A stretch of 64,000 nucleotides of DNA. It comes from a plasmid. The stretch's first letter is position 1. Every line of letters starts with the position of its first letter. The translations under genes were made by a program, and so were the position numbers. Below are positions 5,108-53,655 of this stretch, one piece after another. Under the pieces are notes generated by a model. That model had not been told where the DNA came from. It saw only the letters and a program-made list of their open reading frames with translations, and did not search any database. The stretch lies in the sequence record OW967251.1. One strand, written 5' to 3'.

Positions 5108-9513
<4,406 letters not shown>

Positions 9514-40023: not shown

Positions 40024-40042
40024 ATCAGATGGTAATAAACAA

Positions 40043-40072
40043 AAAAACCACCTGCCAGGGTGGTTTTTTTGC
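40043..40072. terminator. bidirectional rho-independent terminator: 12-bp perfect stem aaaaaaaccacc/ggtggttttttt with 6-nt loop
   Basis: direct reading; A-tract and T-tract on either side. Confidence 0.8.
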
Positions 40073-40386
40073 GTTTCCTCTTTCACATTAAAGAACTGGC
40101 AAGACTTCGCTCACGGCAAATTATGCTTTGTCCATCATAGACCCGCAACGGATTTATTAGCCAAAATGGCGTATTTTCTATGACAGGAATCAACAAAATC
40201 ACTCACCTGACTGTGCTAATCACCGACAGTGATCAGATGAAATAAAGGCTATTTGCATTTAGGGCATTTTAGACCGGCTCTATGTCCTGCTATGTGCTAA
40301 CTTTTCCAGTTTAATGGCCTCTCGTCGAGTTGTGTGGCAACAGTGTTGCCACCGGCGGAAATCCGCCGGTTTGAATGCTTTTTTGT

Positions 40387-42120
40387 TCAGCATGCGACGA
40401 GGTGCCCGTCGCCAAAATCGGTAAAGCGCTGCGGTACTCTCTGATAGCCGATGGGTTTGATCGGTTCTGGTCTTATCGGCATTGCGCTGGTGGCTCGGGG
40501 TTGCCGTCTTTGCTGAACGTCAGGTATAGGAACGGCGCTGAGCAAGTGCTGAGTATAAGGATGCTGCGGATGGTGCAACACTCGATCTCGTGGGCCGATC
40601 TCCACGAGCTGGCCGCCAAACATCACCGCTACCCGGTGGCAGATGCGCTCCACCACCGCCATATCATGGGAAATAAACAGATAGCTGAGCCGATAGCGCT
40701 GACGCAAATCTTCCAGCAGCGTCAGCACCTGCGCCTGTACTGAAACATCCAGCGCGGAAACCGATTCATCGGCGATGATCACTTTCGGGTTCAGCGCCAG
40801 CGCGCGGGCAATGCAAATGCGCTGGCGCTGGCCGCCGGAAAACTGGTGCGGATAACGCCGCATCGCTTCCGCTGGCAGGCCGACCTGCTGCAATAGCTGC
40901 GCCACCCGCTCCGTGCGCTGTACTGCGGGCATCTGCTCATGAATCAGCAGCGGCTCCCCAACCAGGTCGAAAATAGTTTTGCGCGGATTGAGCGCCGCCC
41001 AGGGATCCTGAAACACCATCTGCAAATCGCGGCGTACCGCTCTTAACGCCTCGTCCTTCAGGCCGTGCAGCTCCTGTCCGTTAAGCTGCGCGCTGCCGCT
41101 AAATGGCACCATATTCATCAGCGCTTTTGCCGTCGTCGATTTACCGCAGCCGCTTTCACCGACGATGCCCAACGTCTCGCCGGGGAAAAGATCGAAGCTG
41201 ACGCCATCGACGGCATGGACTTCGCGACGCACGCGCAGGCCGTCGCCGCGCACCGGAAAGCGCACGCTGAGGTCGCGGACGCTGAGCAACGGTCGCGTCG
41301 CCTCGACCGGCGCCAGCGCGGGCGCCTGGCCCAGCACCGGTACCGCCTGCAACAGCTGGCGGGTATAAGCCGCCTGCGGCGAGGTAAACAGCGTTTTTGC
41401 CGGAGCCTGCTCCATGATTTTGCCGTGACTCATGACCAGCACATCATCGGCCATTTCTGCCACCACTCCCATATCGTGGGTGATCAACAGCAGGCTGGTG
41501 GAAAACGCCTGCTGCAGTTCGCGCATCAACTCGAGGATCTGCGCCTGAATAGTGACGTCGAGGGCCGTGGTCGGCTCATCGGCAATCAGCACCTGTGGCT
41601 GGCACAGCATTGCCATGGCGATCATCACCCGCTGGCGCATACCGCCGGAAAGCTCGTGCGGATACTGTTGCAGGCGCTTCTCCACATGACTGATTTTGAC
41701 CGCGTCCAGCATCGTGCTGACCCGGCTGCGCCGTTCACGGCGGCCCAGCACTTCGTGGCGTTGCAGCGTCTCTTCCAGCTGCTGGCCCACCGTCATCAGC
41801 GGATTGAGCGAGGTCATCGGTTCCTGAAAAATCATGGCAACCGACTTGCCGCGCAGCAACTGCATTTGCCGCTCCGGCAGGCTGAGCAAATCCTGGTTAT
41901 CAAAAATAATCGCGCCGCCTGGAATCTGTGCCTCCTCCGGAAGCAAACCCATGATCGCCAGCGAAGTCAGCGATTTACCGCTGCCCGACTCGCCGGCAAT
42001 GCACAGAGTTTTTCCCGGCCAGAGCGCAAAGCTGACGTCATCCACCACCCGCTGTGTACCAAACTGGATCGACAGGCGCTCGACCGAGAGCAGCGGCGCC
42101 GGAAATAGGACTGCTGACAT
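40387..42120 (-). CDS. fused double ABC ATPase of a peptide/opine-type importer (GsiA/DppD-DppF-like, 577 aa)
   Basis: two Walker A motifs ([16 protein letters not shown]) and two LSGG signatures; start [11 protein letters not shown]... (ORF call extended upstream). Confidence 0.85.
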
Positions 42121-42127
42121 AACGCTC

Positions 42128-43075
42128 CTAATTAAACACGCTGTTGGGAAAATAGAACGACACCACCCAGTTAGGCCGATCGACGATTTCGCTGATGCGC
42201 AGATCGCCGCACACGGAGCAGAGCATATAGGCCTCTTCCGCCGACATCCCTTGTTCGCGGCACAGCGCATCGATGGTATAGCTTACCGCGTCGCGGGCGG
42301 CGGTCATCAGGTCAGGGCCAATGCCGGTGAAGGCGCTGTAGCCGTGCCGATCCAGATGTTGGGTCACTGGGCCAGGGGTGGCGAAACGCGGCGTTTTCAG
42401 CGGCATATCTTTAACCACTTCCAGCTTCACCACCACGTCCATCGCGCTTTCAATCGCCGTGCCGCAGACTTCACCATCGCCCTGCGCGGCGTGGGTGTCA
42501 CCAATAGAAAACAACGCGCCTTCTACTTCCACCGGTAGCCATAATGTGCAGCCAGCGGCCAGATCGCGAATATCCAGATTGCCGCCCACGCGGCGCGGCG
42601 GCACCACCGAATGATGGCCCGCGGCGGCGGGAGCGACGCCGAGGGTACCGGCGAAGGGTTTCAGCGGTACGCGGCCATATCGGCCAAAGGCGCAGGGGGT
42701 TAAGCCCTGGCGGTCATATTGCCACAGCGTCAGCGCCGGATCAGAAAACTGATCGGCCAGCAGGCCGAAGCCCGGGATATTCGCAGTCCAGCCAAAGCCG
42801 CTGGGACGAAAGGATTCCAGCGTCACCTTTAGCGCATCGCCCGGCTGAGCGCCTTCCACATAGACCGGGCCACTGACCGGGTTGAGCTTATCAAACGGCA
42901 GCGTTGGGATATCCGCTGCGGTAGAACCGGCGTTGAACCAGCCGTTAGCCGCATCCAGGCAGTGAAACTCCAGTTGGCTGCCGGAAGCTACGTGCAGGAC
43001 CGGGCTCAGGCTGTTATCCCAGCCGAAATGATGTTGAGCATGATGAATGGTCTTCACCAGACAATTTTGGCACAT
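42128..43075 (-). CDS. acetamidase/formamidase family amidohydrolase (FmdA/AmdA-like, 315 aa)
   Basis: family-typical motifs ...GPVYVEGAQPGDALKV..., ...GGNLDIRDLAAGCTLWLPVEVEGALFSIGDTHAAQGDGEV... Confidence 0.75.
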   Translation of the reverse strand: MCQNCLVKTIHHAQHHFGWDNSLSPVLHVASGSQLEFHCLDAANGWFNAGSTAADIPTLPFDKLNPVSGPVYVEGAQPGDALKVTLESFRPSGFGWTANIPGFGLLADQFSDPALTLWQYDRQGLTPCAFGRYGRVPLKPFAGTLGVAPAAAGHHSVVPPRRVGGNLDIRDLAAGCTLWLPVEVEGALFSIGDTHAAQGDGEVCGTAIESAMDVVVKLEVVKDMPLKTPRFATPGPVTQHLDRHGYSAFTGIGPDLMTAARDAVSYTIDALCREQGMSAEEAYMLCSVCGDLRISEIVDRPNWVVSFYFPNSVFN

Positions 43076-43119
43076 CCTGACTCTCCTTTAAGCAGCGGCG
43101 CCGTCCCGGCGCCATCAAA

Positions 43120-44727
43120 TTATTTCAGTCCGATATAGTCGTAGTTGACTGGTACATGCACTGGATCGACATACAGCGCGTCCTCGCCCCCCATGCGTGC
43201 GGAATGTACGGTGTAGCGCTTCTCGTTGAATACCGGCACCCAGGGCGCGTCATCCATTGCAGTGATGAAGATTTTGCGCCAGGCTTCAATGCGCGCGTCC
43301 TGCTGGTCGGGTTTCACCATGCTGTCCGCCGCGGCCGCCTGCGCGTCCAGCGCTTTGTTGCAGTAGCGCGCCCAGTTCCAGCCGCCCTCTACCGCCCCGG
43401 CGCAGCCGAGGATCGGGCCATAGAAGTTGGAGGGATCCGGGAAATCGGCGATCCACGCCATGCCGCCGGACCAGACCATCGGCGCTTGGCTGGCGGAGCC
43501 GCCCGCCGCAATCACATTCGCCTGCGCCAGGGATTTGATGCTGGCGTGGATGCCCACTTTGGCCAGATCCTGCTGGATAGACTGAGCGATACGCGGCTGC
43601 GGATCGGTATTCATCACGTACAGTTCGGTAGCAAAACCGTTGGGGAAACCCGCTTCGCTGAGCAGTTGCTTCGCTTTTGCCGGGTCGTAGCTGAAACCCT
43701 GATATGCCTTGTCATAACCGGGCATGGCGGGTGGCAGTGGCTGGTTGGCCGGCGCCGCGCGTCCATTAATGATGCGCACGATGCGATCTTTGTTGACCGC
43801 CATGTTCACCGCCTGGCGGACTTTGAGATTATCGAAAGGCGGCAGCGTGGTTTTCATCGTCACGTAGCCGGTCTGCAACTGGTCGCCGGTGACCATCAGG
43901 CCCTTATAGGCCGGGTTGTTTTTAAACGACAGAAACTGTGCGGGCGGTACGCCGTCGCCGGCAATATCCACTTCGCCTTTTTCCAGCCGCAGCAGAGCGA
44001 CCGAGGGATCCTGTCCCATTTCGAACTTTATGTGATCCAGCCGCGGCACGCCGGCTTTAAAGTAGTTCGGGTTTTTGCGGAAGATCAGCTCCTGGCCCAG
44101 CTTCCACTCCTGGAGCTCAAACGCGCCGCTGCCGACCGGATGCTTGCCGAAGTCGGCACCCCATTTCTCCACCTCCTCACGGGGAACCACCGAGGCAAAG
44201 TTCAGCGCCAGCACATGCAGGAAGGTGGCGTTGGGCTCTTTCAGAGTGATTTTTACCGTATGATCGTCGACGACCTCGATACCGCTCAGGGTCGTGCTTT
44301 TACCGCTGGCCTCCTCGTCATAGCCCGCGATGGGACTGAAGAACCCGGCGCCCGGACTTTGGGTTTTCGGGTTGACTGTGCGTTCCAGAGAATATTTCAC
44401 GTCCGCCGCCGTGACCTCGCGGCCGTTGTGGAATTTCACCCCTTTGCGTAGCACAAAGGTGTAGACCTTGCCGTCCTCGGAAATGGCGTAGCTCTCCGCC
44501 AGGTCGTTCACCAACTCGGTGGTGCCGGGACGATAGTCCATCAGGCCGTCGAACAGGCTTTTGATCATCGACCAGTTTTGCCAGTCATAGCCAATGGCCG
44601 GATCGAGGGTCGCCACGTCGTTCTGGTAGGTCACCACGATATCGCCGCCAGTCTTCTCGTCAGCCTGCGCGCCATAAGAGAAACAGGCCGCGGCCACCGC
44701 CATTGTCAATAACGCATTTTTCATCAT
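43120..44727 (-). CDS. ABC transporter substrate-binding protein, family 5 (peptide/nickel/opine type), with signal peptide
   Basis: MMKNALLTMAVAAACFSYGAQA signal; 535 aa. Confidence 0.85.
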   Translation of the reverse strand: MMKNALLTMAVAAACFSYGAQADEKTGGDIVVTYQNDVATLDPAIGYDWQNWSMIKSLFDGLMDYRPGTTELVNDLAESYAISEDGKVYTFVLRKGVKFHNGREVTAADVKYSLERTVNPKTQSPGAGFFSPIAGYDEEASGKSTTLSGIEVVDDHTVKITLKEPNATFLHVLALNFASVVPREEVEKWGADFGKHPVGSGAFELQEWKLGQELIFRKNPNYFKAGVPRLDHIKFEMGQDPSVALLRLEKGEVDIAGDGVPPAQFLSFKNNPAYKGLMVTGDQLQTGYVTMKTTLPPFDNLKVRQAVNMAVNKDRIVRIINGRAAPANQPLPPAMPGYDKAYQGFSYDPAKAKQLLSEAGFPNGFATELYVMNTDPQPRIAQSIQQDLAKVGIHASIKSLAQANVIAAGGSASQAPMVWSGGMAWIADFPDPSNFYGPILGCAGAVEGGWNWARYCNKALDAQAAAADSMVKPDQQDARIEAWRKIFITAMDDAPWVPVFNEKRYTVHSARMGGEDALYVDPVHVPVNYDYIGLK

Positions 44728-44736
44728 CTTCCCCTG

Positions 44737-45657
44737 CTACTTTTTGACATCAATGCGCGGATCGACCCACGGCAGCACCAGATCCGCAATAAGGTTGCCG
44801 CCAACAATGGCAACCGCTGACACGGTGGTTACCCCGACAATCACCGGGATATCCACCTGTTGAATCGCCTGCCAGGCCAGCTGACCGATACCCGGCCAGC
44901 CAAAGACCGATTCGACTACCACCAGTCCGCCCATAAAAATGCCGATATCAATGCCTATCATCGGAATTAGCGGCAGCACGGCATTCGGCAGCACGTGACG
45001 CAGCAGTACGCGGGTTCGGCCCAGCCCTTTGGCCCGCGCGGTACGGATAAAATCCTGATGCAGCACCTCAATCATCGACGAGCGCAACATGCGTGAATAC
45101 CAGCCGCTGCCGAGCAGGCCGAGGGTTAGCGCCGGTAGCGCCAGATGGCTGAAGCCGCCATAGCCTCCCATCGGGAACCAGTTGAGTACCACGGCGAAAA
45201 GATAGAGAAAAAGCATCGCGGCGATGAACTGCGGCGCCGAAACACCGATAAAGGAGAGCGCCATCAGAAGCCGGTCCGCCAGCCCGCCGCGTTTTAACGC
45301 CGCCAGGGTGCCGAGTGCGATCCCCAGTACCAACTCGCAGAGAATACCCGCCGCCATCAGCTGCAGTGACGGCCCAATACGGGCGGAAACCAGTTCACTC
45401 ACTTCGCTGCGCTGAATAAACGAGCGTCCCAGATCGCCGTGCAGCAGCCCCTGCAGATAACGCCAATATTGCTGATAAAACGGCAGATCCAACCCCAACT
45501 GATGGCGGATGTTTTCGACTACTTCCGGCGTGGCACTGCGCCCGGCGATTTGGCGCGCTGGATCGGCGGGCAACATAAACAGCAGCAAATAGCAGATCAA
45601 CGTAACGCCAAGCAGGATCAGCCCGGCATGCAACAGACGTTTTCCCAGAAATAGCAT
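44737..45657 (-). CDS. ABC transporter permease (DppB-like)
   Basis: 306-aa membrane protein with permease EAA-like region. Confidence 0.85.
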   Translation of the reverse strand: MLFLGKRLLHAGLILLGVTLICYLLLFMLPADPARQIAGRSATPEVVENIRHQLGLDLPFYQQYWRYLQGLLHGDLGRSFIQRSEVSELVSARIGPSLQLMAAGILCELVLGIALGTLAALKRGGLADRLLMALSFIGVSAPQFIAAMLFLYLFAVVLNWFPMGGYGGFSHLALPALTLGLLGSGWYSRMLRSSMIEVLHQDFIRTARAKGLGRTRVLLRHVLPNAVLPLIPMIGIDIGIFMGGLVVVESVFGWPGIGQLAWQAIQQVDIPVIVGVTTVSAVAIVGGNLIADLVLPWVDPRIDVKK

Positions 45658-46505
45658 TAGTTTCGTCCTTTTAAGCCGGGATCGAGGGCGTCGCGCAGGG
45701 CGTCACCAGCGATATTGAAAGAGAGCGACAGCAGCACAATCGCCGCGCCGGGAAAGAACACCAGCCAGGGAGCCGAAGTAAAATAGCTCTGGCTTTCAAA
45801 GATGATGTTGCCCCAACTCGGCGTTGGCGGCTGTACCCCCACCCCGAGGAACGATAGAGTAGCTTCCAGCAGGACTGTGGTGGAGATGCCTAGTGTGGCC
45901 CAGACCAGCACCGTTGGCGCCAGATGTGGAATTAAATGCACGCCGAGAATACGCAACGTTCCGGCCCCCAGGGTGCGTTCCACGGCGATAAAGTCGCGGG
46001 CGCTAAGCGCGCTAGTTTCGGCGTAGGTAACCCTGGCGATCTGCACCCAGTTCACCATGGCGATCACCAGGGACACGATCCAGACACTTGGCTGGAAAAT
46101 CGCCGCCAGGGCAATCGCCAGCAGCAGTGCGGGAAACGCCATCATCAGATCGGTAAAGCGCATCAGCAGCCCTCCGATACGCCCCTGCAGATAACCTGCG
46201 CTAAGCCCTACCAGGACGCCGATCAGTACTGCAGTGCCGTTGGCGACAACACCGATGAGTAACGAAGTACGAGCTCCGTAAATTAAACGCGAGAAGAGAT
46301 CGCGTCCCAGCAGATCGGTTCCCAGCCAGTAAGTGCTGTTGGGAGAAAGCGGTGCGCCTTCCAGGCTCAGTCCCTCGACAAACTGTTCATCGGGATCGAA
46401 GGGGGTGAGCCAGGGGGCAAACAGCGCGCTCATCACCACCAGGAGAATAAACAGCAGCGAGAGCAGCAGGGCTGGCCGGCGCAGAAAATATCCGACTCTA
46501 TTCAT
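45657..46505 (-). CDS. ABC transporter permease (DppC-like)
   Basis: start MNRVGYFLRRPALLL...; ORF call extended upstream; 4-nt overlap with the ANTAR regulator gene. Confidence 0.8.
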   Translation of the reverse strand: MNRVGYFLRRPALLLSLLFILLVVMSALFAPWLTPFDPDEQFVEGLSLEGAPLSPNSTYWLGTDLLGRDLFSRLIYGARTSLLIGVVANGTAVLIGVLVGLSAGYLQGRIGGLLMRFTDLMMAFPALLLAIALAAIFQPSVWIVSLVIAMVNWVQIARVTYAETSALSARDFIAVERTLGAGTLRILGVHLIPHLAPTVLVWATLGISTTVLLEATLSFLGVGVQPPTPSWGNIIFESQSYFTSAPWLVFFPGAAIVLLSLSFNIAGDALRDALDPGLKGRN

Positions 46506-47095
46506 TGTGCTCCCCGCTTGCCGGACGACATTCGTAGCAGCCACTTCTGCGCCACCTGTGCCACCGACTGGTTCGTACACATTGATTCCGAGCGCAGGCG
46601 AACCCATGCCTGTTGTTCATCAATACTTTCCGCTTGCATCTGGGCCGCCAGAGCTTGGGTAATCTGCGGCATTGCTGCCAGACGCTGGCGCAGTAGCATC
46701 TGTTGCTGTTGAATGTCATGCAACTGCTGACGCAGCCCCACTGCCATCATCAGGGTGGTATAGATGGCTCGCTGTGTAATAGGCTTGGTAAGGAGCGCTG
46801 TTGCCCCTAACTCCAGCGCGCGCTGTACCTGGTAAAGTCCCTCATGTGAGGTCAGCGCGATCACCGGTATTCCCGCCAGATTGATCTGGCTCAGGGTTAG
46901 CGGGCTGGCGAATGCCTCCAGTTCCACCAGTACTGCACAGGGGGTGAGAGGAGGTAAAGCCTCATCTCCGGTCAGGTGATGCCAGCGGATACCCATCCGC
47001 GTCAGGTTTTTTTCCAGCGCTTCGCGACTCCTTGCTTCACAGTCTACCAGCAGGAGCGGCTGAGCATCTAAATCCGGGGACAGCAGCGTTTTCAT
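46502..47095 (-). CDS. amiR: response-regulator-receiver + ANTAR RNA-binding antiterminator (AmiR-like, 197 aa)
   Basis: receiver-like N-terminal half, C-terminal ANTAR helix region ...QRAIYTTLMMAVGLRQQLHDIQ... Confidence 0.7.
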   Translation of the reverse strand: MKTLLSPDLDAQPLLLVDCEARSREALEKNLTRMGIRWHHLTGDEALPPLTPCAVLVELEAFASPLTLSQINLAGIPVIALTSHEGLYQVQRALELGATALLTKPITQRAIYTTLMMAVGLRQQLHDIQQQQMLLRQRLAAMPQITQALAAQMQAESIDEQQAWVRLRSESMCTNQSVAQVAQKWLLRMSSGKRGAQ

Positions 47096-48219
47096 TTAAC
47101 AATCCTCAGAGCAGGTCTGGCTGCAACCGTTCGGCTTTCACGTAGCTCGGTCGCGGAGAGATAGGGATCGGGCATAACCGGCAGCGGTTCGCGATGCAGT
47201 ATCTGAAAGCAAGTTTGTTGCAACTCAGCGATGTAGCAGGGCAAACAGGCGTGGTTGTTTCGAGCCATTACTGAGCGAGCGCCCGGAGAATCAACGTCGT
47301 GCTGACGATGCAGTGCCGCCAGCACCGCACCCGGCTCGCTGTTTCCGGCCTCGCGCAGGCTATTGGCAAACAGCCTTACTGCCCGCCAGCCGCCGATGTA
47401 GTAGTGGGAGATGCGCTGTGCGCCATGTTGCAGGTGCTGCCGCGCGCAAAAATCGAGATCGACGCTCTCAAAAAACGGTCCGCAGGAAAGCAAACGTACC
47501 GCCCTTAGTGGCGCGACTTCGGCGACTTCGGCTTCGGTAAAATTACAGCTGAGCACCGCTAACGTCCGCCGATCGCGAAGACAGGCCTCGTCCAGTGCGC
47601 GCAGAAACGCATAAGAGGTTTCGCCTACCAGGTTATTGAGTACAAAATCTACCTCTGTGCTGAGAATCGCCTCAATCAACTCGGTCACGTTGCTGTTTCT
47701 CAGGTGCAGATATTTTTCGCCCACCACCGTACCGCCGGAACCTTCCACTACCTCACGGGCGATACGATTGCTTTCCCAGCCCCAGACGTAGTTAGAGCCG
47801 ATCAGCCAGGAGCGATTTCCGAACATATCCAGCGCCAGCCGCAGGAGTGGCAGCAGAGTCTGGTTCGGACAACCGCCCAGATATACGACCTGCTCGCAGC
47901 TCTCGAACCCCTCGTAAGGACAGCCATACCACAGCAGCAGGTTATGCTGCTCCAGGTCCGGGATAATCTCCTTCCGACTGGCAGAGGTAATGGTTCCGAA
48001 GATATGGCGGATGCCGTGAGCGATAAAGGTGCTCACCGCTTCACTGTAGGCTGCGAGTTCACCCGCAGGGTTGATATGTCGGGCCCGCAGCTGAAAAGGA
48101 TAAGCAGGATCGGCATTGATTTCCTCTAAGGCATGGCGCGCACCAAGCAGTGTGCTGTTCGCCAGGTGGCTGTAGGTACCTTCTGTGGAAAGCAAAATTC
48201 CAATATCAATAGTTTGCAC
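47092..48219 (-). CDS. amiC: AmiC-like periplasmic-binding-fold amide sensor / negative regulator (375 aa)
   Basis: Type-I PBP fold protein without signal peptide directly upstream of and overlapping the ANTAR gene, as in the Pseudomonas amiC-amiR pair. Confidence 0.65.
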   Translation of the reverse strand: MQTIDIGILLSTEGTYSHLANSTLLGARHALEEINADPAYPFQLRARHINPAGELAAYSEAVSTFIAHGIRHIFGTITSASRKEIIPDLEQHNLLLWYGCPYEGFESCEQVVYLGGCPNQTLLPLLRLALDMFGNRSWLIGSNYVWGWESNRIAREVVEGSGGTVVGEKYLHLRNSNVTELIEAILSTEVDFVLNNLVGETSYAFLRALDEACLRDRRTLAVLSCNFTEAEVAEVAPLRAVRLLSCGPFFESVDLDFCARQHLQHGAQRISHYYIGGWRAVRLFANSLREAGNSEPGAVLAALHRQHDVDSPGARSVMARNNHACLPCYIAELQQTCFQILHREPLPVMPDPYLSATELRESRTVAARPALRIVK

Positions 48220-48240
48220 GTATGTTTGCTCTCTGCATTA

Positions 48241-48280
48241 ATAAAAAAGCCTGATTGTCCTTATTAGGACAATCAGGCTT
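48241..48280 (-). terminator. leader terminator/attenuator upstream of amiC: 14-bp perfect stem (aagcctgattgtcc/ggacaatcaggctt) + U-tract on the coding (minus) strand, about 25-40 nt before the amiC start
   Basis: direct reading; minus-strand transcript ...aagccugauuguccuaauaaggacaaucaggcuuuuuuauu... Confidence 0.7.
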
Positions 48281-48551
48281 CATTACCTGTCGATATTTAA
48301 TGGATTCAAGGCTTAAGGGTTGCCCCTGCTTGCATATACCCGACATGAAAAATTCATGCCATTTTTAAAGCACAGTTAAATCAATGGATTATTTATTTTT
48401 GGAGACACTTTTGCACCAATGGGATGCGGCTTGCTCAGTTATGGTGCAATTTTCTGATGCAGTCTGGTCTCTTCAACATGAGGTGGAGTAATGCACACCT
48501 GTTTTAGTTCCACGCACTTTTTGAGAGTTCCGGTTTTTCAGCCATCAGCAG

Positions 48552-48812
48552 GTGATCCTCCGGCGTCAGGTTATTCAGGGATTCATGGGGACGCTCTGGA
48601 TGGAAGATCCTCGTGACGAAGCCGAATTTGCCCCCGGCCACGTGCTTTTTTTCGAGCGTAATGTTGTCCATGCATTACCAACCCTTCTTGAAGAACCCGT
48701 AATATTTCTGTCATTGGCCAGCCCTCGTCGTGATCCTGAAGATATTACCTTTGTTGACCCGAAAGATGGCACTGCCAGAACCTTTATGGCCAGAAATAAT
48801 GAGTCAGCATAA
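48552..48812 (+). pseudogene. possible cupin-fold gene fragment
   Basis: 86-aa ORF, weak similarity pattern only; low confidence. Confidence 0.25.
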
Positions 48813-48833
48813 AGGGCCAGAACCAAAGGTAAG

Positions 48834-49298
48834 GTGGAGCGGATGGTGAAATACCTCAAGGAGAACTTCTTCGTCCGGTACCGCCGGTTCGACAGCTTCG
48901 CCCAGGTTAATCAGCTACTGGAGCAGTGGATGGCTGACGTTGCCGACAGGCGGGAACTTCGCCAGTTCAGGCAGACACCGGAACAGCGCTTCACGCAGGA
49001 ACAGGAGCATCTGCAGCCGTTGCCGGATACGGACTTCGATACCAGCTACTTCGATATCCGTCATGTCTCCTGGGATGGCTATATCGAGGTTGGCGGAAAC
49101 CGTTACAGCGTGCCGGAAAGCCTGTGTGGCCAGCCGGTATCAATACGGATCTCGCTGGATGATGAACTGCGGATCTACAGTAATGAGCAGCAGATGGCAT
49201 CGCACCGTCTCTGTTCGGCTGCATCCGGCTGGCAGACCGTGCCGGAGCATCACGCCCCGCTCTGGCAGCAGGTCAGTCAGGTGGAACCCGAAATCTGA
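48834..49298 (+). pseudogene. istA: C-terminal remnant of an IS21-family transposase (IstA)
   Basis: ...YLKENFFVRYRRFDSF...TSYFDIRHVSWDGYIEVGGNRYSVPESLCGQPVSIRISLDDELRIY... characteristic IstA C-terminus; no upstream part and no istB. Confidence 0.7.
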
Positions 49299-49773: not shown

Positions 49774-50291
49774 ATGTCTGACCGTGCCACTACCACAGCT
49801 TCCTTAACGTTCGAGTCGCTTTATGGCACCCATCACGGCTGGTTGAAAAGTTGGCTGACGCGCAAACTCCAGTCTGCCTTTGATGCAGATGACATTGCCC
49901 AGGACACTTTTTTGCGGGTAATGAGCAGCGAAACGCTCTCGACGATCCGCGATCCTCGCTCTTTCCTGTGCACTATCGCCAAACGCGTGATGGTGGACCT
50001 GTTTCGCCGAAACGCGCTGGAAAAAGCGTATCTGGAGATGCTGGCGCTTATGCCGGAGGGGGTAGCGCCTTCACCTGAGGAACGCGAAAGCCAGCTCGAG
50101 ACCCTACAACTCGTCGACAGCATGCTGGACGGGCTAAACGGAAAAACACGTGAAGCGTTTCTGCTTTCGCAACTGGATGGCCTGACATACAGCGAGATTG
50201 CGCACAAACTCGGTGTTTCCGTCAGCTCCGTGAAAAAATACGTGGCGAAAGCCGTCGAGCACTGCCTGCTGTTTCGTCTGGAGCATGGGTT

Positions 50292-50295
<4 letters not shown>
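49774..50295 (+). CDS. fecI: ECF sigma factor FecI
   Basis: [50 protein letters not shown]... Confidence 0.95.

Positions 50296-53655
<3,360 letters not shown>

Follow-up and report, generated by a model that had tools for sequence, protein, structure and literature searches.

A candidate ANTAR-controlled attenuator in the leader of the amiC-amiR amide operon of plasmid record OW967251.1

The stretch of plasmid DNA analysed here (64,000 nucleotides (nt) of sequence record OW967251.1; hereafter, the window) carries on its minus strand an amide operon of seven close-packed genes, in the order amiC-amiR-permease-permease-binding protein-amidase-ATPase. On the same strand, four elements precede amiC: (i) a sigma-54-type promoter element; (ii) a conserved bulged hairpin, P1; (iii) a hexaloop hairpin, P2; and (iv) an intrinsic terminator hairpin. 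An earlier note on this DNA had taken the last of these for a candidate ANTAR-controlled attenuator, a proposal which is now supported in silico by the overlap of P2 with the terminator, by covariation across 39 leaders and by the promoter-like element upstream.

The terminator hairpin of the amiC leader

The terminator hairpin (48246..48281, minus strand) is composed of a 5' arm (48281..48266), a loop (48265..48262) and a 3' arm (48261..48246). On the minus strand it reads aagccugauugucc (48280..48267), uaauaa (48266..48261), ggacaaucaggcuu (48260..48247) and uuuuauu (48246..48240), which is exactly the 14-bp perfect stem, 6-nt loop and U-run of the earlier note; when G48281-U48246 and U48266-A48261 are added to the 14 perfect Watson-Crick pairs, the stem reaches 16 pairs and the loop is reduced to 4 nt. 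Seven of the 16 pairs are G-C, with a GC-containing core formed by G48278..C48267 and G48260..C48249, and the isolated hairpin has a folding energy of -26.6 kcal/mol. Directly at its 3' side lies the U-tract UUUUUUAUU (U6-A-UU; 48240..48248, minus strand), whose first three U are able to pair with G-A-A at the base of the stem. There is no T-run after the hairpin on the plus strand and, in consequence, the terminator signal is strand-specific. The order of elements on the minus strand is ...cagguaaug, AAGCCUGAUUGUCC, uaauaa, GGACAAUCAGGCUU, uuuuauuaaugcagagagcaaacauac and the GUG of amiC. This GTG (48219) lies 27 nt from the 3' end of the stem and 21 nt from the end of the U-run: the hairpin does stand before amiC, at slightly less than the 30-40 nt first given. 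A weak Shine-Dalgarno sequence (AGAGAG, 48234..48229) is found beyond the hairpin.

In a terminator scan of 10 kb (41-51 kb), no terminator-like site other than 48246..48281 exceeded 6 pairs. The 206-nt leader region has a folding z-score of -4.06, and none of 200 dinucleotide shuffles was as good. An Rfam search of 47900..48900 at permissive E-values returned only noise (microRNA and small RNA fragments at 15-17 bits) and no riboswitch or attenuator family.

Two other roles for the hairpin were considered. That of a terminator of an upstream minus-strand gene was ruled out, since the 94-residue upstream open reading frame (ORF) is spurious and the region corresponds to insertion sequence (IS) and integrase debris of the other strand. 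Translational control was dropped, since the Shine-Dalgarno sequence and the start codon fall outside every predicted helix.

A search of one-genome-per-species contigs with an AmiC profile provided 80 loci. Every gamma- or betaproteobacterial locus among them has a single architecture over the 100-130 nt before amiC. From these, 39 distinct leaders, each directly upstream of amiC and together representing at least 10 genera, were aligned (Klebsiella, represented by the window, Raoultella, Pantoea, Sodalis, Pseudomonas, Stutzerimonas, Marinobacter, Chromohalobacter, Salinicola, Vibrio, Paraburkholderia and others). The terminator, P2 and the hairpin upstream of it are conserved, with covariation, in Klebsiella, Raoultella, Pantoea, Sodalis, Pseudomonas, Marinobacter, Halomonadaceae, Vibrio and Paraburkholderia. 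For the terminator, 95.8% of the alignment cells are paired and 10 of the 16 pairs have changed on both sides, measures reached by none of 500 shuffles (slid controls are 25-55% paired); a T-run of at least 6 after the hairpin is invariant (39/39). The element hence combines a stable, GC-containing stem-loop, a U-tract and a pairing conserved beyond sequence, the hallmarks of a Rho-independent terminator. Judged by its sequence, it is a stop signal for transcription, conserved through evolution, within the untranslated leader of an amide operon.

A covariance model built from the 39-leader alignment locates the leader once in the window (48334..48242; 80.6 bits, E = 8e-18) and once in each of the related loci, always immediately 5' of amiC; it detects no second copy of the leader within the operon or elsewhere in the window. 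Metagenome contigs were also scanned with a plain sequence pattern spanning P1-P2, unconditioned on AmiC. There were 51 matches, 47 of which have an amiC start 53-56 nt downstream (one at 93 nt, where the alignment begins at residue 14); the other four are not followed by a hairpin and look like chance.

Hairpins P1 and P2 and the promoter region

The candidate antitermination hairpin P2 (48274..48289, minus strand) has the form CAGGU-AAUGAA-GCCUG, with its hexaloop at 48284..48279 (A1 being 48284 and G4 being 48281). Its 3' arm, GCCUG (48278..48274), doubles as the opening five bases of the core stem of the terminator, and three bases of the loop, G48281, A48280 and A48279 (positions 4-6), also pair at the terminator base. 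Since the 3' arm and the loop G-A-A are both used in the 5' arm of the terminator, P2 and the terminator are mutually exclusive. According to RNAfold (ViennaRNA), the minimum-energy fold is P1 plus P2 for the RNA that precedes the terminator 3' arm, and P1 plus terminator (-36.4 kcal/mol) for the complete leader. P2 alone is worth only -6.2 kcal/mol and would therefore need a protein to persist.

Among the 39 leaders, the P2 hexaloop has A1 in 35, G4 and A5 in all 39, and A6 in 38, and 97.4% of the P2 stem cells are paired; the sequence directly 5' of the terminator is more conserved than the stem itself. The loops of the family (AAUGAA, AACGAA, AUCGAA, ACCGAA and GAUGAA) conform to the A1/G4 pattern seen in the loops of the published ANTAR seed alignment, in which ACCGAA is the P1 loop of the Pseudomonas aeruginosa ami leader and GAUGAA the P2 loop of Listeria monocytogenes eutA. 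In one Ectopseudomonas leader (L016), G-C replaces an A-U pair of P2, with a matching change in the terminator partner, so that the 5' arm of P2, the shared arm and the 3' arm of the terminator covary as a triple, the pattern predicted by alternative pairing. ANTAR proteins stabilise a hexaloop hairpin which overlaps the 5' arm of a terminator (PMC3369931, PMC8934654), and the minimal ANTAR site has been redefined as a single hexaloop, the P1 of dual sites being termed the "recruitment" hairpin and P2 the "antitermination" hairpin (Walshe et al., PMC8934654). P2 has a stem of at least 3 bp, an A1/G4 hexaloop and a 3' side overlapping the terminator 5' arm, as defined by Ramesh et al. (2012), and with its G4 hexaloop it also corresponds to the minimal ANTAR target of Walshe et al. 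(2022).

P1 (48307..48332, minus strand), a conserved bulged hairpin, is a candidate recruitment element. Its outer stem CAAG/CUUG pairs 48332-29 with 48310-07 and is followed by (i) a 1-nt bulge, C48311; (ii) an isolated pair, C48328-G48312; (iii) a UAA bulge, 48315..48313; and (iv) an inner stem, 48327-24 with 48319-16, whose loop is GCAA. RNAfold reproduces this structure exactly. The outer stem and the C-G pair are 95.9% paired in the 39 leaders, with changes on both sides in three of five pairs: the outer stem is GAAG/CUUC in Marinobacter, AUGAG/CUCAU in Vibrio and a longer CAAAG/CUUUG in Paraburkholderia, and the isolated C-G pair is U-A in Salinicola. The inner stem is variable (both-sided changes in four of five pairs), and the sequence UAAG is near-invariant (U 39/39, A 38/39, A 39/39, G 38/39). 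Taken jointly, P1 and P2 have 88.4% of their cells paired and both-sided changes in 9 of 15 pairs, a result equalled by 0/500 shuffles.

The P1-P2 linker (48290..48306, minus strand) is poorly conserved. In the Pseudomonas and Stutzerimonas leaders (L009-L033), the longer linker holds an extra GC-rich hairpin, GCGCC-N3-5-GGCGC, which the enterobacterial leaders lack and which may serve to hold the effective distance between P1 and P2 constant. At the predicted 5' end of the transcript there is a 9-codon ORF, AUG CAA GCA GGG GCA ACC CUU AAG CCU UGA (48335..48307, minus strand); it is not conserved in other genera and, consequently, there is probably no leader peptide. A classical antiterminator, in which the P1 sequence AAGNCUUG would pair with the 3' arm of the terminator, was also dropped, given that the fourth base is variable (U/C/A) with no covariation with the terminator.

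Upstream of P1, the sigma-54-type -24/-12 element TGGCAT-N5-TTTCA (48346..48361, minus strand) has its GG at 48360/59 and its -12 C at 48347. The spacing, GG-N10-TC, fits sigma-54 (GG-N10-(G/T)C), the consensus being TGGCAC-N5-TTGCW. A TGGCAY-N5-TT(T/C/G)C(A/T) element occupies the equivalent place in nearly all 39 leaders, the exceptions being one Paraburkholderia leader (L034) with a degenerate -24 element and one Vibrio leader (L043) where none was found. Among the window, Raoultella and Pantoea the element is invariant even though its flanks diverge. No sigma-70-like site was detected on the minus strand within 48220..48560 (from amiC to the IS debris). Transcription is thus predicted to start at about 48335, 3 nt before P1, which would place the hairpin inside the leader. 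The earlier note had held that a start downstream of the hairpin would undo the proposal; instead, the only promoter-like element is located about 80 nt upstream of it, the start being predicted, not mapped.

Between this promoter and two upstream dyads lies a sequence resembling a site for integration host factor (IHF), AATCAATGGATTA (48379..48391, plus strand), a consensus match only (WATCAR-N4-TTR), whose pattern is retained in Raoultella (AATCAGCGGTTTA) and Pantoea (AATCAGCAGGTTA). The two NtrC-like dyads (48412..48448, minus strand) are TGCACCATAACTGAGCA (48448..48432) and CGCATCCCATTGGTGCA (48428..48412), with 20 bp between their centres. Each matches TGCACC-N5-GGTGCA at 10 of 12 positions; these are likewise consensus matches only, against a background of about 0.6-1 such site per kb. 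Relative to the -24 GG, they stand at -88 and -68 in the window and at -89 and -69 in both Raoultella and Pantoea. When the three loci are aligned, the sole conserved upstream blocks are the -24/-12 element, the IHF-like site and the two NtrC-like dyads, and similarity stops just 5' of the dyads. From this enhancer-IHF-sigma-54 layout, we predict a control by nitrogen limitation layered on the attenuator.

Regulators, proposed mechanism and rival explanations

The first gene after the attenuator, amiC (47092..48219, minus strand), encodes an AmiC-like cytosolic amide sensor of 375 residues, with a GTG start and no signal peptide, whose N-terminus begins directly in the mature fold (Pfam Peripla_BP_5, E = 9e-77; PDB AmiC 1PEA/1QO0, E = 2.7e-38). 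Its stop codon overlaps the ATG of amiR (ATGA), which suggests translational coupling. The latter gene (46502..47095, minus strand) encodes an AmiR-like ANTAR antiterminator of 197 residues (Pfam ANTAR, E = 5.9e-8; AmiR_N, E = 1.6e-4; PDB AmiR 1QO0_D, E = 5.8e-7; EutV 6WSH, E = 1.4e-4), and both gene identities of the earlier note are hence confirmed. The receiver domain of AmiR is a pseudo-receiver, with Glu at the position of the phospho-acceptor Asp (VLVELE). A Peripla_BP-fold sensor lacking a signal peptide therefore stands beside a pseudo-receiver-ANTAR protein, the arrangement that defines an AmiC-AmiR pair. In the EutV-RNA structure, the only base-specific contact is made by the flipped-out G4, stacked on Tyr164 and bonded to Glu160 (PMC8934654); when AmiR is aligned to EutV 6WSH, Tyr164 is replaced by Trp and Glu160 is kept.

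Most probably, the hairpin is a Rho-independent terminator in a 5' leader of about 115 nt and works as an ANTAR-type transcription attenuator. From the sequence features observed, we infer the following regulatory steps. Under nitrogen limitation, an NtrC-type activator bound at the two upstream dyads would, together with IHF, fire the sigma-54 promoter, with transcription starting at about 48335. The nascent RNA would fold P1 first (48332..48307) and then the 5-bp P2 with its AAUGAA hexaloop (48289..48274). In the absence of inducer, AmiC would hold AmiR, the emerging 3' arm would displace the weak P2 in favour of the far more stable 16-pair terminator, and RNA polymerase would stop at the U-tract (48240-48246) and release about 90-95 nt of leader transcript. 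AmiC sequesters AmiR until amide binds (PMC12591593); here, AmiC bound to an amide (most likely an L-amino-acid amide, possibly acetamide) would free dimeric AmiR which, probably after recruitment at P1, would clamp the P2 hexaloop via the invariant G4 and allow read-through. Read-through would then yield AmiC and AmiR (translationally coupled, at a fixed ratio), the transporter and the amidase, so that induction would amplify both sensor and effector.

Several observations weigh against this attenuator model. Regarding the RNA, folding had been proposed in the earlier note as a way to find paired small hairpins, and it did reveal the P2 hexaloop over the 5' half of the terminator; its presumed partner is missing, since an exhaustive search for an A..G.. 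hexaloop hairpin of at least 3 bp located 5' of P2 was positive in 0/39 leaders (shuffles expect 9%). The linker, of 17 nt here and 10-30 nt in the family, goes beyond the 5-12 nt tolerated by EutV: in eut, linkers of 3 nt or 14 nt abolish function (PMC3369931), and some members of the published ANTAR seed alignment have longer ones. Measured against the dual-hexaloop definition (Ramesh et al., PMC3369931), then, P2 and its overlap with the terminator agree with it, and P1 and the linker depart from it. Only two P2 pairs have changed on both sides, the 3' arm being also constrained by the terminator, which limits covariation. Regarding the protein, the ANTAR domain of AmiR is divergent (32.8 bits versus a cut-off of 27.3), and the positions of the EutV basic patch N173/R175/R177 (RNA binding by EutV was lost in the triple mutant) align to C/N/S in AmiR. 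Regarding the promoter, the -12 element is TTTCA rather than TTGCA, with the -13 G replaced by T or C in most members and the canonical TTGCT present only in one Paraburkholderia leader (L037). In the equivalent loop of alphaproteobacterial leaders (described below), A1 occurs in 26/30 but G4 in only 9/30. Finally, no experiment in the literature searched demonstrates that this operon undergoes termination or read-through, that AmiR binds, or where transcription starts.

Strong terminators are common beside mobile DNA, and in the window IS fragments lie just upstream of the leader. The hairpin could accordingly be constitutive and free of AmiR control, acting as an insulator against upstream read-through from the IS debris or as a stability element of the 5' untranslated region, with induction taking place only at the promoter; the link between AmiR and this RNA is without experimental evidence, which is in favour of such an explanation. 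Nevertheless, the hairpin is found downstream of a conserved promoter in chromosomal, IS-free settings of many genera; the ANTAR-type hexaloop conserved 5' of the stem shares bases with it, and a plain terminator needs none; and a terminator of 16 pairs that was always active between a promoter and its only operon would silence that operon. We consequently regard a constitutive hairpin as quite unlikely. The IS-fragment-rich mosaic island in which the locus is found also makes it conceivable that the palindrome is a functionless product of chance or an inverted repeat of a mobile element. However, a 14-bp perfect Watson-Crick stem is expected only about 0.001 times per 64 kb (an arithmetic estimate), and the conserved position of the stem and its compensatory changes in the 39 leaders refute this explanation, whose probability is negligible.

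Since the leader and amiR always co-occur, the comparison by itself cannot separate AmiR from another trans-acting factor. Moreover, P1 contains a highly conserved asymmetric internal loop (UAAG) and is no ANTAR hexaloop. It could be argued from this that P1 and P2 form a cis-acting, riboswitch-like RNA sensor or the target of some other factor (Hfq/Crc, a small RNA), AmiR acting elsewhere. Against it, there is no Rfam match to a riboswitch or known RNA, the roughly 45 nt of conserved RNA fall short of the size and complexity of known amide or amino-acid aptamers, each position of the P2 loop agrees with the ANTAR consensus, and the leader is found only beside an amiC-amiR pair. This explanation seems to us just as improbable as that of a constitutive hairpin.

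Within the attenuator model, a tentative and rather doubtful suggestion is that P1 might be a new kind of ANTAR recruitment element, in which the invariant UAA bulge and the adjacent C-G pair replace the A1/G4 hexaloop and are matched by a divergent AmiR subfamily devoid of the EutV-type basic patch. If so, this operon family would have one canonical hexaloop (P2) and a non-hexaloop partner, which would explain why the target was missed by covariance searches and by the 2024 preprint (see below). It would also provide a natural test of the model in which a single hexaloop is sufficient and P1 only recruits; in any case, a non-hexaloop P1 is a natural experiment on the need of ANTAR proteins for a "dual hexaloop". 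The terminated leader RNA of about 95 nt would retain P1 and, as a possibility, might titrate AmiR as a built-in decoy. EutX/Rli55 is such a decoy RNA for EutV.

The closest known system is the P. aeruginosa amiE leader with AmiC-AmiR (amiEBCRS). In both cases, a cytosolic AmiC-type sensor is paired with a pseudo-receiver-ANTAR protein which it sequesters or, here, would sequester, the leader holds a Rho-independent terminator and the regulators are encoded inside the operon they control; the proteins are homologous to the crystallised complex. The ACCGAA loop of the amiE P1 is the P2 loop in one Pseudomonas (L032) and two Paraburkholderia (L034, L037) leaders. By contrast, the operon described here (i) has its regulators first and its amidase near the end, the latter being of the FmdA_AmdA type and not a nitrilase-superfamily AmiE; (ii) includes an Opp/Dpp-type ATP-binding cassette (ABC) importer with an SBP_bac_5 protein and has a predicted sigma-54-type promoter; and (iii) has a leader which is not alignable with that of amiE, P1 being a bulged hairpin where amiE has a hexaloop. 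The proteins also share little identity (about 30% is quoted for the Mesorhizobium pair in bioRxiv 10.1101/2024.02.22.581678). The earlier note had called the circuit autoregulatory, unlike that of Pseudomonas. The difference in gene order holds, but the contrast was overstated: in P. aeruginosa, amiC and amiR also belong to an operon that starts with a terminator-bearing leader and is induced as a whole (PMC12591593).

The nasF/NasR system of Klebsiella oxytoca, also enterobacterial, follows the same two-tier logic, with an NtrC/sigma-54 promoter and ANTAR relief of a leader terminator (PMC12591593), the Ntr/sigma-54 tier being predicted from sequence in our case. It differs in that NasR detects nitrate by means of a fused NIT domain and has its gene outside the nasF operon, and in that nasF has two canonical hexaloops. 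In the eut/EutV system of Enterococcus faecalis (PDB 6WW6), P2 likewise overlaps the 5' arm of the terminator through a hexaloop with A1 and G4. Unlike AmiR, EutV is activated by phosphorylation and has a basic patch which is not kept here, and in eut the linker (5-12 nt) is length-sensitive and P1 is a hexaloop.

The attenuator, so understood, is a known class of mechanism at a previously unmapped place: it supplies the RNA target that had been lacking for a widespread operon family. In two recent papers, ANTAR control is assumed without a target, and this regulation is now directly testable. The operon is predicted to respond to both nitrogen limitation and amide availability. Furthermore, the leader would constitute a compact, portable amide-responsive attenuator; the engineering of AmiC/AmiR parts into biosensors is already under way (PMC13531289).

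Operon content, distribution and genomic setting

The genes located after amiR (40387..46607, minus strand) were identified through Pfam and the RefSeq annotation of an identical Escherichia coli locus. They encode (i) two Opp/Dpp-type permeases (Pfam), the first of which extends over 45657..46607 by its longest ORF; (ii) an SBP_bac_5 binding protein (43120..44727, minus strand; Pfam), given the generic name of ABC substrate-binding protein in RefSeq; (iii) an FmdA_AmdA amidase (42128..43075, minus strand; Pfam), similar to PDB acetamidases (E = 5e-36); and (iv) a fused double ABC ATPase (40387..42270, minus strand; Pfam). The longest ORF of the first permease overlaps amiR by about 100 nt, and the RefSeq start is at the amiR stop codon (282 residues). 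With this start, all seven genes abut or overlap by few bases, which agrees with a single, translationally coupled transcript.

The binding protein matches PDB 8UPI, that is, MeAmi_SBP bound to L-serinamide, with E = 2.5e-253. The operon is therefore a member of the MeAmi family (an L-amino-acid-amide transporter with an amidase), and the cargo of the transporter, as deduced from this similarity, is probably L-amino-acid amides. The MeAmi family was described in bioRxiv 10.1101/2024.02.22.581678, where ANTAR control was predicted from gene content and canonical dual-hexaloop targets "could not be identified". An "acetamidase operon" was reported on the Klebsiella megaplasmid pKOS9W-1, again with ANTAR control predicted from gene content and no leader analysis, and acetamidase activity was reported for a Klebsiella strain with the same plasmid operon (PMC13209695). 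Both publications deal with the operon presented here, and the leader terminator, P1/P2 and the sigma-54-type promoter appear in neither. Because of the 8UPI match and the acetamidase activity of the Klebsiella carrier (PMC13209695), the inducers are likely L-amino-acid amides and/or acetamide. Out of the three candidates of the earlier note, acetamide is thus kept, and formamide and urea become less likely than L-amino-acid amides.

The alphaproteobacterial loci (L044-L081, including a Mesorhizobium metagenome-assembled genome) have a leader of their own. In 30 of 38, a GGC-N6-GCC hairpin overlaps a leader terminator about 75-185 nt upstream of amiC; a hairpin with a variable loop and an A(C/A)AUA motif come before it. 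The promoters of these loci look sigma-70-like (TTGAC...), not sigma-54. The scarcity of G4 in this group probably explains the negative target search of the preprint.

Regarding distribution, the 8-kb operon is >99% identical across plasmids of Enterobacteriaceae (PMC13209695). The leader and the 5' end of amiC, at an identity of at least 99%, occur in 745 PLSDB plasmids (Klebsiella accounts for 714, and most are large and conjugative), and the leader region in 6 of 5426 complete E. coli genomes; many Proteobacteria carry relatives of the operon on their chromosomes. In two E. coli plasmids (H7, H8), the match ends 58-157 nt inside amiC, meaning that truncated copies which keep the leader do exist.

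Upstream of about 48450, the window contains IS and integrase fragments and, after them, fecIRA-like genes. The debris (48552..49298), which abuts the regulatory region, comprises an IS21-type/Mu-transposase C-terminal fragment (PF22483) and "integrase" pseudogenes, and similar debris is present at 8889..9197 of an E. coli NCTC11129 locus (L001). Just past it, three plus-strand ORFs (49774..53655) are FecI/FecR/FecA-like; recognised by eye, they presumably encode a ferric-citrate sigma factor, its anti-sigma factor and a TonB-dependent receptor. These fec-like genes and the amide operon form a cargo mosaic typical of large Klebsiella plasmids.

At the other end of the operon, about 310 nt past the stop codon of the ABC ATPase, AAAAAAACCACCCTGGCAGGTGGTTTTTTT (approximately 40043..40075, both strands) forms a symmetric hairpin that has both an A-run and a T-run. 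A weak match of the covariance model (40035..40131) corresponds merely to this hairpin and U-run at the 3' end of the operon. Judging from its sequence, the AAAAAAACCACCCTGGCAGGTGGTTTTTTT hairpin is likely a bidirectional terminator that closes the operon.

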